A stretch of DNA of 58,284 nt, the filler included, from Circinaria calcarea (taxonomy: Eukaryota): the NCBI GenBank assembly GCA_051942165.1. It is 7 parts of 7 records of this genome, joined end to end, with 100 filler letters (N's around TTAATTAATTAA, not from the genome) between each part and the next. Parts side by side here need not be neighbours in the genome. Positions count along the whole stretch, not along the records: positions 1 to 8,247 come from JAVECS010001145.1; 6 more parts are not named here. One strand, given 5' to 3'. Shown here piece after piece: positions 2,708-50,047 of this stretch; within the stretch, counting starts at the first letter, position 1; each line of letters starts with the position of its first letter. Both the position numbers and the translations under genes were made by a program. The notes under the pieces were generated by a model. It saw only the letters and a list, made by a program, of their open reading frames with translations. It ran no database searches and was not told where the DNA came from.

Positions 2708-3187
2708 CTAGGAGAGGAATACCTTCAGCCCTTTGGTCTGCATGCTGGCTCCTGTCGGCTTTTGTCCAAATAGTTCGCAGCGAAGGCTGTCTATCTTTGA
2801 TTCAAGTCTTGCTTTGAGTTTATCGGAAGCCACATCCATCTCGTTGAATTTTGCATCCACCCTGTTGAATCTTGTATTCATCTCGTTGAATGTTGCATCC
2901 ACCTTATTGAATCTTGCATCCACCTCGTTAAATCTTGCATTAAATCCTATATCTATCTCGTTGAATCTTGTATCCACCTCGTTGAATCTTGTATCCACCT
3001 CGTTGAATCTTGTATCCACCTCGTTGAATCTTGCATCCACCTTATTGAATCTTGCATTGAATCTTGCGTCCATCCTATTGAATCTTGTATTCATCCATAC
3101 GGGAAGACCGGCAGTGATTACTGTCTGTAAAAGTCCGGTTTCTATGCCTTTAGAAATCGACTTAAAAAGTCGCTGAAATCTTGACAT
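2708..3187 (-). CDS. Small heptad-repeat (RFNEVDA/T) coiled-coil protein, 159 aa
   Basis: ATG-initiated ORF with about 12 heptads of the form RFN[EKR][VM]D[AT], giving a hydrophobic a/d pattern. Intron-like GT..AG segments lie in the 5' leader. Confidence 0.65.
   Translation of the reverse strand: MSRFQRLFKSISKGIETGLLQTVITAGLPVWMNTRFNRMDARFNARFNKVDARFNEVDTRFNEVDTRFNEVDTRFNEIDIGFNARFNEVDARFNKVDATFNEMNTRFNRVDAKFNEMDVASDKLKARLESKIDSLRCELFGQKPTGASMQTKGLKVFLS
2836..3094. repeat. 21-bp coding minisatellite
   Basis: Three perfect TCGTTGAATCTTGTATCCACC units at 2958-3020, flanked by degenerate units. Confidence 0.95.
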
Positions 3188-3688
3188 CCCGATTCGAAGA
3201 GGATGGATAAACTATACACAAGTTATTACTCAAGACCCGTAGAAGGGATATCCATGAAGATACCTTGGTATTGGAATACCTTGCAAAAGACGTTGTTAAT
3301 TCTCCAGTCACCTTCCGGTCAACTCTACCCTAGTTATCGAGAAGAAAGGCTTCAGATCTAGAGACCCAGGCTTACTTTTTGTTTTAGCTGATGAAAGAGA
3401 TGCAGGTGAAGCTTATGGAAGCAACTGGATCATCCTTTGTTCCTGTAACTATCTGCACGATAAAGAGTGTCGGACTTTATTATCAAGCCCACAACACTTC
3501 TCACCTTACTACCTTTGTCCCTACACATGAATAACGAAGCAAGGGTGGCACGGCCCTGCACCTTTGAGCAACGCGATTCCTAATTAGTCTAGAGGAAGCT
3601 ATAAGCCGCGGTATGACGTTTTGTTACAACCAACTCCAGCACCCCTATATTACATGACATAGGGCCACGAAGGCATAACAAGGATGCG

Positions 3689-3889: not shown

Positions 3890-4289
3890 ATGTTGTGACT
3901 GCCCGGGCTGTGATTCTGTAGTTAGTAGTGGATTACCATTTCTGCTAGCTCTATACTGCTACCATACGATCCAACACGGCCCCGTCAGTTTCTTTAGAAT
4001 CCCTCCAGACTCTACGATCTTGGCAAATCACCTTATGAGATCACCATCACTGCAATGCTGTCCCTGCAGCAAGTAAACCGGCTCTATCTTCGAATACCTG
4101 TGAGGGAGGAACACTATGCAGCAGGAACGGAATATGCTTGATGCTGGAGACAAGGGAACTAATGGGAAATGGAACGGAGTTGGATTTATAGTCACAACTA
4201 AAGTGTAGGTGAAACGAAGAATACGAGTGTAAAAGGCAAGGCAACGTTGTTTATACCAGCTGATATGGTCTTTGTAGAGGCACACAAGT

Positions 4290-6146
4290 TCAATGATTCC
4301 GACTATGCTGGTCATAGCTTCGCGGAGGCCCATTTATGCTGGGATTCTTCAAGCGTAGCGTTTGGCTCAGGCTGAAGGTAGGAAAGGAAAAGCTTGAGCC
4401 TCCTACATCGATGGACCTGCCCCGGACAGGCGGCGATGTGGTCTGCTTCCTCTCATCTAGGTGGGATGTGGCAGCCCGAGCTGGGAAAGTCAGAGATATG
4501 CTCGACCTCCTTCCCTCGTCCAATCGCGCATACGAATTAGGGGGATAACTTCCTGCATTTCTCTCAACTTCGATCTTAGTCGAAACTCGCGGCTCATATG
4601 GTTCCTCTTCTCTTCTCTTCTCTCTTCTCTTCGACTGCTTTCTTCTATTTGCGAAACCTGAAGGGTGAGTTGTAGGAATACCATGATCATTTAGTATATC
4701 CTTGTCAGCGGTGTCATGTTGGAGAGATGCAGGTCCATGCCATTCATCATCTGAAGAAGATGATGACCCGTTAAATAAGGATGTATTGTCTGCGAGATTT
4801 CTCTCTGGAGACATATACCGCTGGATCGATAACGGTGTGAGGTGATCGAGGTAGTCGCTAAGTTCACCCCTTTTCGGCCTTACCGCTGAGTCTCTAGAAT
4901 CCTCGCCCCTTTTGGTCTGTAAAGTCGAGTTTTCCTTCCTTCCTGGATGCGTCACAACAGCGACCGGTTTCAACAAAATCAAGGGGGACACGCCTCCAAT
5001 TCCCAGTCGGATAAGAGATGGGTGTAGACAGTGCAAGAGAGTTTCGATCTGGGTATCTCTCTTCACCGGTCCCCATGTGTCAGCGTCTTTCAGGTTCCAT
5101 TCATTGAGCAATAGCGGTGCAGATAACTCCTTCGGAAAGTCTTCGACAATTAGCTCATACTGGCGACTAGAAGTCTTCATGTCCTGATGCAGTTTGATAG
5201 CTGGATCTAGAATATCTCGCTGGAATCTTGCTTCAAGTCTAGCGAAGGCAGCGGCCTCGAGTAAGAAGGAAGTTAGATCCTTTTTTACTAGACCTGATAT
5301 TCTGTTCGATTGTTCAGCTCCTCGATTTCCGCTTTCTGGAAGAGCGGCAAGCGCTGTTAATGTCTCAGATCTCCATTTATCTGTGGCTAATCGTTCTATT
5401 AAATCCCAGTTAGCTATGTATTCGATGGAAAGCCACTTGATCGCGCAGATGACGAACCTTTAGCTAGACTTGTACTTCCCTTACCCCTTTCAATATCTGT
5501 GACAACTGCGATCTGTTGAGAGGAGAGACTAATCGGATACTTTTGCTTGAACACATGTTCGTCTAGAGCCCACTGTATTACTACAGACAGGATCAAAAAG
5601 TTGGAACACCCATAGGGCCCTTTGTGGAAGATATCAGTCTCTCTTACAAAAGTCTCTAGGTTCGATTTCCGCTTTGTTTTCCCCCTTTTTCGACGCTGGT
5701 TCCGACACCGGCTATACAAAAGCGCATTGTCGTCGGTATCAGCCATGACTTCAAAAACCCATGTTTCGATCGATTTGTGGATTTGTTCGAAATCGTTTCG
5801 GATAGTTGTATCAGAGACTTGAGTATGTGGCTGCAATGCGAAAAGTGCTGACTTGCACTGCTCTAAATCGGTCTTCAAGAGCTCGCGTTCTTCGGTCCAG
5901 AGAGATTTTTCTTCTCTTAGGTTCCATAGCTTTTCTTTCGCCTCTATCAACTCGATATGCTTTATGTCTGCTCCTTGTGACTGTCTAGGGTCAGACATCA
6001 CCAAGGAGACTCTAAGTTCATCCGGTTCCTTCATATAAGATCAGCACAATATCTCAGTTTTAGACATCCAAGAGGAGGGAGGGGATGACTCCTAGCCATA
6101 CTTTACAAAGCGTCATAAGATCTGAAGGTGCTGCTGTCTCTACCAT
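4290..6146 (-). CDS. Coiled-coil hypothetical protein (3 exons), divergent partner of the Hsp70-like gene
   Basis: ATG at 6146 (MVETAAPSDLMTLCK). Introns 6101-6029 and 5457-5396 (GT..CTRAY..AG) join ORFs 5414-6034 and 4290-5180 in frame. Order of features: coiled coil, QVSDTTIRNDFEQIHKSIETW, KWRSETLTAL, ILDPAIKLHQDM, LHPSLIR...LLKPVAVV, then a low-complexity tail. Confidence 0.8.
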
Positions 6147-7227
6147 ATTCTATGTCAATCGCACCCAACGGTGAGTACCTGGTCTCTTTCAAGTTCGGAT
6201 ACCGTGCGTGCCCTTTTAACTTTAACTACTTAGTTTCCTCGATCCTCACCTATGATACATCGGTAACGGATAGTGGTTTAAGCTTTTTCCACAGCCTCAA
6301 TATCCAAAAGAGTGTGTTATGTGTTTATGGCGAGGACTCTCTAGGTTTCGGCCCTTACAGTTTTAAATTTGAGGCTCTAGCTCCTAGCTTATCATACGTT
6401 GTTACTTACATGAATCCAACAGGGAAAAAAATTCTCAATGTCTTTGCCGGGTGTGGGGTGTGATGGGAAATCCACGCGCATAATGCATTAAGTATCTGTG
6501 TGGTTACACGACTTGCTGATTGCATGGAATTGTCAGGCAAAGCCACCCATCGGCGATCAAGTGTCATATTGGCAGCAGAATAAGGCAATTAATTCGTACT
6601 TAGTCTTCCACTATAAGTGGGGGCGGAATTGAGCGAAAAGCCCAAAGCCGCAACGTGGTAGACGAAATACGAAGTCCTTCGTACGGTTCAAGCAGACGAG
6701 ACAGAATTGGCGGTCCCCTTATTCATTGGAATATCCCTCGGTACCGTTAGAAAGTGCAATCATGGCACAGAATAATTGCTTTGACATCAGTATGAATTGG
6801 TAGTAATCCATATATCCTATAAAGGGGAAGAACAATGTGGGATAACATAATGGTAGTGACACTCATGAGTACCGGACCCTATAGATGGTGCATGCTCTAT
6901 ATGCGAGCCGCATGGGTGCCAAGCCACAGTACTATAGCTTGAATTGAATAACATGGGATTGAATCGTTACAGTTACTGTGGGCCGCCCCACCCAAAGCCT
7001 CGGGGCTATCATGTCTATTGTCCCAAGCAAAGACTTCGAGTTGAAGGCTCTCAAACAGGTGGGTGATACAAGGCTGAAGAACATAAAGGACGGTTTCAGA
7101 GTTCCATTATTTGTAGATCTTGTTCATTCATACATCCAAAGCACTTGAAATCACAAATAGTATTCTGCACACTCTATATATACTGTTACCCCTAAGTTGG
7201 ACGGTTTGACAGCCAGAAGTTTCACAC

Positions 7228-8247
7228 ATGGCTATCAATGAAAGAGTTCTCGACCGGAAGATAAAGATTTTAGTGGCGGTAGATTTTGGTGGGTAGAGGC
7301 TATCCTCACGAGTCTACCATACGGAATCATTTGGTCGACCAAATGCTCAGCCTAACATTAACAGGAACAACATATTCCAGTATTGCTTGGGCACAGACGG
7401 GGAATGTGGGTTCTAAGTATGCTGCAAATTCGTCCGCTGATAGCTGACATCCATTAATCAGGCCGATTCCCAAACGATCATACAGCAGTAGCCTGAGCCG
7501 CACTCCACAGGCCTTGAAGGAAAGAGCGATGATAAAGTTCCGACGTAAGCTAAAACTGATGCTTCCTACCGAGGAGAAAATTCAAAGAAAACTGCCAACG
7601 CTGATGCCGCAGGATATTGAAATATGATGGCGTCGACTACAAATGGGGCTACCAGATCGAAGGATCGGACTTCCGGCACGAATGGTTCAAACTCGGTCTC
7701 GATCCCAGTTCGATGAGAGAATCTAAGCTTGCAGTGAAATATCCGAGCCCTACCCAGCTACCGCCCCGATCCGCCCCTTCTTCTGAGAAGCTGACTACCG
7801 ACTACCTTACTGCGCTTCATCAGCATGCAGAGTATACCTTAGAACAGACGTTTACAAAAGGAGTTCTAAAGAGCACACCAAGGGAATATATAATCACCGT
7901 CCCGGCTGTGTGGTCAGACATGGCGAAAGATCTGACACGTTCTTGTGCAGCCGAAGCCGGCATGGGGTCCCGAAACAGTCTCCATATTATCTCGGAACCG
8001 GAAGCGGCGGCCATGTACGCTCTAAGCGCTATGAATTGCGGACTTGGAGTCGGAGATACTTTCGTGGTGTGCGATGCAGGGGGAGGGTATGCCAATGTTT
8101 TAGTACCCAAATGCGATGTTCTGGACTGACTGATGATGGTTTTTAGGACGGTCGACTTGATCTCCTATACAGTTTCGTCCAAGGACCCTGTTCTTCAACT
8201 CAATGAAGCTGCACCTGGAACTGGTGATCTTTGCGGAAGTACTTTTC
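7228..8247 (+). pseudogene. HSPA12-like Hsp70/actin-fold ATPase gene with an in-frame TAG (7489-7491); 3' truncated by contig end
   Basis: Spliced translation gives ILVAVDFG|TTYSSIAWA, KVPT, HEWFKLGLD, TTDYLTAL, YIITVPAVWSD, IISEPEAAA, FVVCDAGGG|TVDLISY and LCGSTF, all hallmarks of fungal HSPA12-type Hsp70s. TIIQQ*P has a stop where W is expected. Confidence 0.85.
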
Positions 8248-8347
8248 NNNNNNNNNNNNNNNNNNNNNNNNNNNNNNNNNNNNNNNNNNNNTTAATTAAT
8301 TAANNNNNNNNNNNNNNNNNNNNNNNNNNNNNNNNNNNNNNNNNNNN
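8248..8347. other. Artificial contig linker
   Basis: 44 N + TTAATTAATTAA (stops in all six frames) + 44 N. Confidence 0.99.
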
Positions 8348-9194
8348 GATGGCTTGCATATCTTTGTTATATAGCTGGGGCCACGGTGCTTTGTAGCTCA
8401 GACTGTCTAGACCTTATCTACATACTATTAGCTCGAGGCTGTCGCCATGACTACTCACGTATTGAAAAGCTCCATGGCTGATGCAATAGGCGTCCTGGGC
8501 GGCTTGTGCTCCGGCTATGCTGTGCTACTGTCGAGGCATTCTGGTCGCGGCAAGCTAACGGAGCGCAGGCATCAATTGTCAATTGAATGGAGGCTGCATT
8601 GGGATTAAATCGATGCTTTGTTGCTGTGGCTTGCAGCTCCGTTGTTGACGCGACGTCGGATGCGCCCGACTTTTTGTTTTCAGCTGTCAATTCTCGCGTG
8701 TTGCGCGTTGGCACAACCAAGAGTGGCTTGGATCCGTCAATGAACTAGTCCGTACTCCGTAGTGGAAGTTGGCCAACGGCCAGGCATGCGGAATAGCACC
8801 GCCAAATCGGCAGAGATGGGCCCCTGCCCGTCCTTATTCGGAGGACGACTTTGGTGGCTTGGCGGTCCGAAAGCAATCATCGGCCCATGCAGGTCATGCA
8901 GCCACAAAGGGGGGGGGACCTGGCAAATATCCGAAGCGCATCCTCTGGAGTTATGACTACGTTCATTCTTTGCAACTGTGGGGTTCAGTACCCCATAGTG
9001 GCATAGAAGTAGCAGTAGCAGGAGTTAGGATCCGCTCTTGGTTCTCCATTGGCGCTAGACCACAATGGCCTCTAGCAACTACAGATAGTGGCCGTCTTTG
9101 TTTTCCTTCAACCTCATCGTCTTCGGTCTGCTATGTCATTCGCTCCTTAAATGCATCCGCATTTTCTTGTCACGGATACTGTATTGCAAGAGAT

Positions 9195-16593: not shown

Positions 16594-16693
16594 NNNNNNN
16601 NNNNNNNNNNNNNNNNNNNNNNNNNNNNNNNNNNNNNTTAATTAATTAANNNNNNNNNNNNNNNNNNNNNNNNNNNNNNNNNNNNNNNNNNNN
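16594..16693. other. Artificial contig linker
   Basis: 44 N + TTAATTAATTAA + 44 N. Confidence 0.99.
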
Positions 16694-24934: not shown

Positions 24935-25034
24935 NNNNNNNNNNNNNNNNNNNNNNNNNNNNNNNNNNNNNNNNNNNNTTAATTAATTAANNNNNNNNNN
25001 NNNNNNNNNNNNNNNNNNNNNNNNNNNNNNNNNN
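24935..25034. other. Artificial contig linker
   Basis: 44 N + TTAATTAATTAA + 44 N. Confidence 0.99.
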
Positions 25035-33273: not shown

Positions 33274-33373
33274 NNNNNNNNNNNNNNNNNNNNNNNNNNN
33301 NNNNNNNNNNNNNNNNNTTAATTAATTAANNNNNNNNNNNNNNNNNNNNNNNNNNNNNNNNNNNNNNNNNNNN
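33274..33373. other. Artificial contig linker
   Basis: 44 N + TTAATTAATTAA + 44 N. Confidence 0.99.
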
Positions 33374-41610: not shown

Positions 41611-41710
41611 NNNNNNNNNNNNNNNNNNNNNNNNNNNNNNNNNNNNNNNNNNNNTTAATTAATTAANNNNNNNNNNNNNNNNNNNNNNNNNNNNNNNNNN
41701 NNNNNNNNNN
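41611..41710. other. Artificial contig linker
   Basis: 44 N + TTAATTAATTAA + 44 N. Confidence 0.99.
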
Positions 41711-49947: not shown

Positions 49948-50047
49948 NNNNNNNNNNNNNNNNNNNNNNNNNNNNNNNNNNNNNNNNNNNNTTAATTAAT
50001 TAANNNNNNNNNNNNNNNNNNNNNNNNNNNNNNNNNNNNNNNNNNNN
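49948..50047. other. Artificial contig linker
   Basis: 44 N + TTAATTAATTAA + 44 N. Confidence 0.99.

Follow-up and report, generated by a model that had tools for sequence, protein, structure and literature searches.

A divergent pair of genes in Circinaria calcarea for an HSPA12-like Hsp70-fold ATPase and a coiled-coil protein: a candidate conserved two-gene unit of Pezizomycotina

Hsp70 proteins of the HSPA12 type are widespread; a 2026 review (PMC13580251) calls their function unknown, and the HSPA12 passages of two 2026 reviews name no function or cofactor for HSPA12. Besides vertebrate HSPA12A and HSPA12B, the described systems closest to the present case are the DnaK-GrpE and mitochondrial Hsp70-Mge1/GrpEL1 pairs and the coiled-coil proteins MIEAP/SPATA18 and GIL1/IRKI. 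Here we report a locus of Circinaria calcarea (GenBank assembly GCA_051942165.1, record JAVECS010001145.1) at which a gene for an HSPA12-like Hsp70 (plus strand) and a gene for a coiled-coil protein, referred to as the partner (minus strand), diverge. Both are located on the first contig (1-8247) of the stretch of DNA analyzed, hereafter the window, which joins seven contigs of about 8.24 kb into 58,284 nucleotides. The best explanation of this arrangement would be a conserved divergent unit of Pezizomycotina, composed of an HSPA12-like Hsp70-fold ATPase and a dedicated coiled-coil cofactor, a proposal toward which we are as inclined as we are doubtful. No published description of such a pair was found in the full-text literature, paywalled papers being outside the scope of the search.

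The linkage of the two genes in other fungi was evaluated from the locus tags and contig sizes given by the sources for 17 partner homologues from named organisms, seven species having an Hsp70 homologue among the 120 matches listed. In four of these seven testable species, the two genes bear consecutive locus tags on contigs of equal size: Rasamsonia byssochlamydoides (partner 9317 and Hsp70 9316, contig size 127,618), Sarea resinae (001219 and 001218, contig size 509,593), Exophiala xenobiotica (002796 and 002795, contig size 3,833,114, and in a second strain 005332 and 005333), and Botrytis porri (010606 and 010605, contig size 998,435). With the window included, the adjacency spans four classes, Lecanoromycetes, Sareomycetes, Eurotiomycetes, and Leotiomycetes, the last being the class of Botrytis. 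A first-pass annotation of this DNA had proposed a dedicated two-gene module and had named unlinked homologues in other fungi as a finding that would speak against it; the adjacency observed in these species supports a conserved two-gene module, and a conserved functional pair is the reading with the best support.

A comparable arrangement is observed in bacteria. A search with the fungal Hsp70 alignment returned 14 bacterial loci, 13 from Actinomycetota and one from a metagenome-assembled genome (MAG) of Planctomycetaceae, according to the record titles. The HSPA12-like proteins encoded there have 520-630 residues, their match to PF00012 is restricted to the nucleotide-binding domain, and they align with the fungal ATPases over nearly the whole length with 22-31% identity (tblastn E down to 3e-31). 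At 11 of the 14 loci, the next open reading frame (ORF) on the same strand belongs to one family and abuts or overlaps the stop of the Hsp70 gene, whereas at three Amycolatopsis loci this ORF is missing. The bacterial partner starts with a coiled coil, and its C-terminus is conserved as G.P.DP..QEAW..C...V..PAYLV..RV...Q.V.T. When a profile built from eight such ORFs was compared with 400 other Actinomycetota genomes, 14 genomes were hit, always by the last ~45 profile positions; the 13 translated hits were all GrpE (one hit with an internal TGA was set aside), and each of the 12 that were aligned after dropping a near-duplicate matches PF01025. Compared by hhalign, these GrpE sequences and the bacterial partner align along 61 columns of the GrpE beta domain with a probability of 94% and an E value of 1.4e-7, a value somewhat flattered because the GrpE set had been chosen by the bacterial-partner profile itself. 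Also, a hidden Markov model (HMM) of GrpE hits one bacterial partner (locus L007) with an E value of 0.002. Judged from these profile matches, the bacterial counterpart consists of an HSPA12-like gene and, downstream of it, a gene for a coiled-coil protein with a predicted GrpE-like beta domain. Given that the two genes stay adjacent in distant fungi and that in bacteria a similar ATPase is paired with a helper resembling GrpE, the two fungal proteins probably work together.

Some peculiarities of the bacterial loci deserve mention. Long open frames at L002 and L004 were considered as possible Hsp70-partner fusions and rejected, being in a different frame from the Hsp70 ORF and hence separate genes. 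In Streptomyces sp. MMG1533 (L014:6280-7052, plus strand) the partner is split over three frames, the locus being either frameshifted or badly assembled. In Catenulispora rubra (L001:4260-4985, plus strand), the ORF ahead of the HSPA12-like gene, separated from it by seven bases, has a match to PF12315, a family of DA1-like peptidases (E 1.1e-16), and could add a third member to the bacterial cluster.

Turning to the fungal partner, it belongs to a family that is Pezizomycotina-wide and without a Pfam domain. Word-based searches recovered first eight and then 48 relatives, mainly unnamed proteins of lichen fungi, and an exhaustive search with a profile extended the family to 262 cluster representatives at E<=1e-3, 124 of them at E<=1e-10. 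The named members are from Rasamsonia, Exophiala, Phialophora, Cudoniella, Oculimacula, Clarireedia, Botrytis, Amylocarpus, Halenospora, Geoglossum, Sarea, Elasticomyces, Lojkania, Hypoxylon, Cytospora, Stereocaulon, and Circinaria, every one annotated as "hypothetical". Scans of metagenome contigs with query alignment A2 and then with P0114 returned no relative. Against Pfam, the partner pieces of the window match no family at E<=1 apart from weak coiled-coil hits, and no family is found in more than two of 118 members at E<=10. Among 30 distant members scanned, 26 lack any family at E<=0.01 and three have sub-threshold hits only, mainly to coiled-coil or helical families. The remaining one (P0170, 456 residues) has ankyrin repeats and a winged-helix domain, and the conserved helical region that the family has toward the N-terminus (profile positions 57-177) is located at its C-terminus; it could be a real fusion resembling NOD-like receptors (NLRs) or a merged gene model, and the latter is probable.

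The fold of the partner was predicted with AlphaFold2 (AF2). The model of the full-length homologue P0004, a modest one with a mean predicted local distance difference test score (pLDDT) of 51.6, opens with a long N-terminal helix, which is followed by a helical region, a small alpha/beta part, and, from residue 340 on, a disordered tail, in agreement with the layout of long helix, helical region, and disordered tail that had been drawn from the window sequence. The C-terminal domain was modeled separately from window positions 4839-5393 with an alignment of 118 sequences, and the mean pLDDT rises to 81.2, with values above 90 in the head. According to this model, the domain is a helix hairpin followed by a six-stranded beta head, with helices at residues 2-16, 19-41, and 47-73 and strands at 79-82, 100-103, 118-124, 126-129, 138-141, and 144-148. 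The segment LLHCLHPSLIRLG..SPLILLKPVAVV, which the first-pass annotation had singled out ahead of the tail, belongs to this head: the segment, LLHCLHPS...KPVAVV, forms the last four strands, the proline of LHP is invariant in alignment A3, and the family consensus reads CLHPS..R....G.......KPV.VV.

The same annotation had suggested that the partner could be GrpE-like, and here the evidence is divided. GrpE gives no hit in the window pieces at E<=1 and is not among the 25 Pfam families listed for the 118 members (E<=10), and the partner profile A3, like profile A8, finds only coiled-coil noise among Protein Data Bank sequences. On the structural side the likeness is weak: the modeled C-domain has the GrpE order of elements, a helix pair and then six short strands. 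A Foldseek search with this model gave nothing at E<=0.001 among 350,542 chains, although GrpE chains were placed at ranks 3 (9a81_A, E 0.89, 165 columns) and 5 (1dkg_B, E 1.3, 162 columns), and three of the four listed chains that span both the helices and the beta head are GrpE. The full-length P0004 model returned generic helical matches, with GrpE not among the matches listed. A complex prediction for the Rasamsonia Hsp70 (P0279) with residues 1-320 of its partner (P0087) scored 0.23 against a mark of 0.34, which is no evidence either way. A GrpE-type function of the partner would be plausible by analogy, although unproven.

Based on the analogy with the bacterial pair and on the order of the fold elements, docking of a GrpE-type cofactor on the ATPase domain would be the most likely mechanism. 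In this mechanism, a non-canonical C-terminal domain would follow the nucleotide-binding domain of the ATPase, and the partner would dimerize through its N-terminal helix. Its C-domain could then dock on the nucleotide-binding domain, as GrpE does on DnaK, and tune the exchange of ADP and ATP, while the long disordered tail may bind clients or set the location of the complex and, together with the extra helical bundle, may serve targeting.

Several observations weigh against this proposal. For the fungal partner against the bacterial partner, hhalign gave probabilities of 0.4% and 0.1%, and against the 12 true GrpE sequences 0.6%, or 0.3% with a re-made alignment trimmed to the C-domain; HMM cross-searches of the fungal partner with the bacterial partner and GrpE match the coiled-coil parts only. 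Moreover, the most conserved part of the fungal protein, the N-terminal helical bundle, has no GrpE counterpart, and the window copy of the ATPase gene carries a stop codon. With regard to linkage, adjacency outside the window was read from locus tags and contig sizes, the Hsp70-like family has several copies per genome, and in three of the seven species (Cudoniella, Halenospora, and Circinaria) the listed Hsp70 homologue is on another contig, the Circinaria contigs in this comparison being only 5.8 and 10.7 kb.

Divergent gene pairs can persist through promoter sharing alone, and the adjacency might be inherited microsynteny around a shared bidirectional promoter, with proteins that neither touch nor share a pathway. 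An adjacency limited to four of seven species would suit this explanation, as would the fact that no test performed here gave binding. However, the adjacency recurs in four fungal classes, and the bacterial ATPase and coiled-coil genes are on the same strand and abut or overlap at most loci, which promoter sharing in fungi cannot explain. We therefore regard it as improbable, and a cooperating pair is kept as the preferred reading.

If the two proteins do cooperate, the main rival to a GrpE-type cofactor is a partner that acts as an adaptor or scaffold, possibly similar to MIEAP or GIL1/IRKI, whose coiled coil and tail would bring the ATPase to a particular site, client, or condensate. The nearest named clusters in the Atlas for P0004 residues 1-345 and for the window C-domain are MIEAP (0.80-0.81) and GIL1_IRKI_C (0.78-0.82), which are leads only, being below the mark of 0.9; as a separate observation, the nearest named cluster with MIEAP is commonest in Mollusca. 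MIEAP also gives a hit in the bacterial partner of L007, although at 18.4 bits (E 0.0023) it stays below the cut-off of 27. In the P0004 model about 210 partner residues are disordered, and Mieap is described in one report (PMC10845071) as a protein with an intrinsically disordered region that forms condensates. Also, the families most expanded in bivalves, according to another report (PMC8382680), include both an Hsp70 family (OG10, with 68 genes in each genome versus 4.4) and one named "Mitochondria-eating protein" (OG24, 53 versus 0.6), a suggestive coincidence and nothing more. On the other side, only five of the ten best named Atlas hits agree, which by the reading of the tool itself means "probably wrong". 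Neither MIEAP (PF16026) nor GIL1_IRKI_C (PF24994) has a hit in the window pieces at E<=1 or in the 30 distant members at E<=0.01, neither is among the 25 families listed for the 118 members, and a search of five bacterial genomes for PF16026 gave no match. The relation to MIEAP and GIL1 suggested by the first-pass annotation is accordingly not supported by these searches, and an adaptor role appears rather unlikely to us, although it would be compatible with a GrpE-like fold of the MIEAP domain itself.

Regarding the ATPase, the start codon that the first-pass annotation had placed at 7228 is retained in the splice model, whose four introns (7289-7364, 7406-7461, 7545-7612, and 8087-8146) are all GT..AG and of 56-76 nt. 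The gene ends at 8247 solely through the contig end, with 253 codons present, and tblastn detected no further piece of it elsewhere in the window. Its translation contains the motifs DFGTTYS, KVPT, ITVPAVWSD, EPEAAA, and CDAGGGTVD, the first three of which resemble motifs of HSPA12, and it is 96% identical to P0194 of Circinaria calcarea and 63% to P0195 of Trichoglossum. Exon 4 matches PF00012 with an E value of 7.7e-5, just above the cut-off, and six of six homologues, full or partial, match this family only at about 107-372 of 599, that is, in the nucleotide-binding part, with final ~170 residues that match no Pfam family; the window copy stops ahead of the region past the nucleotide-binding domain. 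Relatives are named by their sources "actin-like ATPase domain-containing protein", "Hsp70-like protein", and once (P0308) "heat shock 70 kDa 12B-like". These data indicate a nucleotide-binding domain of the Hsp70/actin fold in the window ATPase, as predicted from its motifs and family matches. The protein fits the HSPA12-like class, an assignment made from the PF00012 pattern, one source name, and the resemblance of motifs. Thus, where the gene had been called clearly HSPA12-type, the atypical Hsp70 with only the nucleotide-binding part of PF00012 stands, and the label itself depends on the name of P0308 and the motif resemblance.

This gene is interrupted by an in-frame TAG at codon 44, in a QWP motif. 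The window reads TIIQQ-stop-PEPHS where homologues have PIQQWPG, TIIQWPD, LIQQWPG, or VIVWPD, and the tryptophan at this site (W66) is nearly invariant in A5, an alignment of 64 sequences. A single G-to-A change in TGG would account for the stop. As an aside, such a change is a TpG to TpA transition of the type produced by repeat-induced point mutation, and one site is no evidence for that process. Possible explanations of the TAG are a true pseudogene mutation, a polymorphism, an assembly error, or its use as an alternative splice acceptor; in the last case, an intron 7406-7491 would keep the frame with the loss of 10 residues.

Taken as a true mutation, the stop would mean that the module is decaying at this locus, with a pseudogene for the Hsp70-like copy and no joint function in this genome, a possibility that is independent of the other alternatives. 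Beyond the loss of a conserved tryptophan codon, it would agree with the Circinaria model P0194 (431 residues), which lacks the N-terminal exons and the conserved stretch WTAVVRGA..G..RKHYG near the end of the ATPase domain that other homologues keep, although this shortness may come from a poor gene model. Nevertheless, every other motif in the 253 codons is intact, the partner gene is intact with all family-conserved motifs present, and a single base may be an error or a polymorphism or, read as an acceptor, may be spliced out. Decay at this locus is therefore a serious possibility that falls somewhat short of an even chance.

Both genes of the divergent pair announced by the first-pass annotation were confirmed by open frames, splice models, and homology, with one change in the partner. 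Its open frames 5414-6040 and 4290-5459 are bridged by an 89-nt intron with a GTAAGG start, a CTAAC branch site, and a TAG acceptor. The start had been placed at 6146; the stop at 4290-4292 is as first given, and the ATG at 6034, in frame with exon 1, is the more likely start on sequence grounds, because 6146 requires an additional 73-nt intron with an AAG acceptor and because MKEPDEL resembles the starts MKATEPSD, MKPTESSD, and MKDVKPED of full-length homologues. Accordingly, the stretch shared by the two genes, estimated before at about 1.1 kb, is 1193 bp long, and the shared divergent layout is kept. The full-length homologue P0004 (551 residues) supports both exons: identity is 42% in the first, N-terminal 152 residues and 45% in exon 2, where 87% of the queried stretch is covered, and a tblastn comparison of the window with P0004, P0021, and P0087 agrees with the model. 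The closest public protein, from a Circinaria calcarea MAG, is 93% identical and, like the 96% match of the ATPase, points to a lichen-forming lecanoromycete as the probable source. Heat-shock elements are absent from the intergenic region, and across the whole window 18 matches were found versus 18.9 expected. The coordinates are collected in Table 1; as the window consists of joined contigs, features on the two sides of a linker are not genomic neighbors.

Table 1. Coordinates of the features described in the window
Feature	Position	Strand	Basis or remark
Partner gene, 551 aa: exon 1 5485-6034, intron 5396-5484, exon 2 4293-5395, stop 4290-4292	4290-6034	-	Splice model, homology to P0004, tblastn
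Partner N-terminal long helix / predicted coiled coil (approximate)	5830-5965	-	Helix 6-48 of the P0004 AF2 model via BLASTP alignment; weak coiled-coil Pfam hits only
Most conserved partner helical region, motif GPY.CSN..ILSV.IQ..LD..VF	5486-5812	-	Invariant columns in A2; helices 56-177 of the P0004 model
Partner C-domain, predicted helix pair then six-stranded beta head	4926-5393	-	AF2
Motif LLHCLHPSLIRLGIGGVSPLILLKPVAVV (LLHCLHPSLIRLG..SPLILLKPVAVV), last four head strands	4953-5039	-	AF2
Predicted disordered Ser/Arg/Pro-rich partner tail	4293-4925	-	pLDDT <50 (P0004 residues 340-551; window C-domain piece 157-185); poorly conserved in A2
Shared divergent intergenic region, 1193 bp, GC content 0.44	6035-7227	.	
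HSPA12-like Hsp70 gene, 5' part only: exons 7228-7288, 7365-7405, 7462-7544, 7613-8086, 8147-8247	7228-8247	+	Splice model
In-frame TAG, codon 44, at conserved Trp of QWP motif	7489-7491	+	Homologue comparison
End of contig 1, linker N44-TTAATTAATTAA-N44	8248-8347	.	
Assembly linkers N44-TTAATTAATTAA-N44, same linker six times	8248-8347, 16594-16693, 24935-25034, 33274-33373, 41611-41710, 49948-50047		Sequence and N runs

In another part of the first contig, an open frame of 167 residues (2708-3211, minus strand) encodes about 12 tandem seven-residue units of the types ARFNEVD, TRFNEVD, and ARFNKVD followed by a short helical-looking tail; the Tandem Repeats Finder run covered positions 4000-8600, outside which this array lies.

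A partner that adjoins the ATPase across four fungal classes, together with a GrpE-like counterpart in bacteria, offers a concrete handle on the HSPA12-type Hsp70s and possibly a first functional context for a Pezizomycotina-wide family that lacks a Pfam domain. A broader idea is that a separate lineage of GrpE-derived cofactors serves the HSPA12-type Hsp70s of organisms ranging from actinobacteria to fungi, and perhaps also those of animals and plants; this lineage would comprise the bacterial downstream gene, the fungal family, and possibly the C-terminal domains of MIEAP and GIL1/IRKI. We consider it unlikely. If it were true, MIEAP-like proteins would be Hsp70 cofactors, and the bivalve expansion of Hsp70 and Mieap would be the co-expansion of one machine.

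In comparison with known systems, the ATPase, judged from its homologues, would resemble vertebrate HSPA12A and HSPA12B, in which the Hsp70 nucleotide-binding domain is not accompanied by a canonical substrate-binding domain or lid, and a homologue bears the 12B-like source name mentioned above; a difference is that the HSPA12 passages of the 2026 reviews report no such partner for HSPA12. In the partner, as in MIEAP/SPATA18 (PF16026) and plant GIL1/IRKI (PF24994), a coiled coil precedes a C-terminal domain of some 150-190 residues, and these are the nearest named clusters by language-model features. However, the scores of 0.78-0.82 are below 0.9 and are not accompanied by HMM hits.

As in DnaK-GrpE and mitochondrial Hsp70-Mge1/GrpEL1, a gene for an Hsp70-fold ATPase adjoins one for a coiled-coil protein. 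The predicted helix pair and small six-stranded beta domain at the C-terminal side of the partner recall GrpE, whose chains are its best co-linear structural matches over helices and head, and by eye L-H-P-x-L-x-R...K-P-V-x-V-V can be placed beside L-R-P-G-Y...R-P-A-x-V-x-V of GrpE. In contrast, the fungal partner has no Pfam or profile similarity to GrpE and, at 551 residues, is extended by an additional conserved helical bundle and by a disordered tail of some 210 residues; the fungal ATPase, judged from its homologues, has no match to the canonical substrate-binding domain, and the window genes are head-to-head, not in an operon.

Finally, the bacterial pair differs in its co-directional, abutting or overlapping genes and in a partner of 170-300 residues with a recognizably GrpE-like C-terminus, to which the fungal partner has no profile similarity. 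Nonetheless, both pairs have homologous ATPases with the same PF00012 pattern, and in both a neighboring gene encodes a protein that starts with a coiled coil and ends in a small domain on the C-terminal side.

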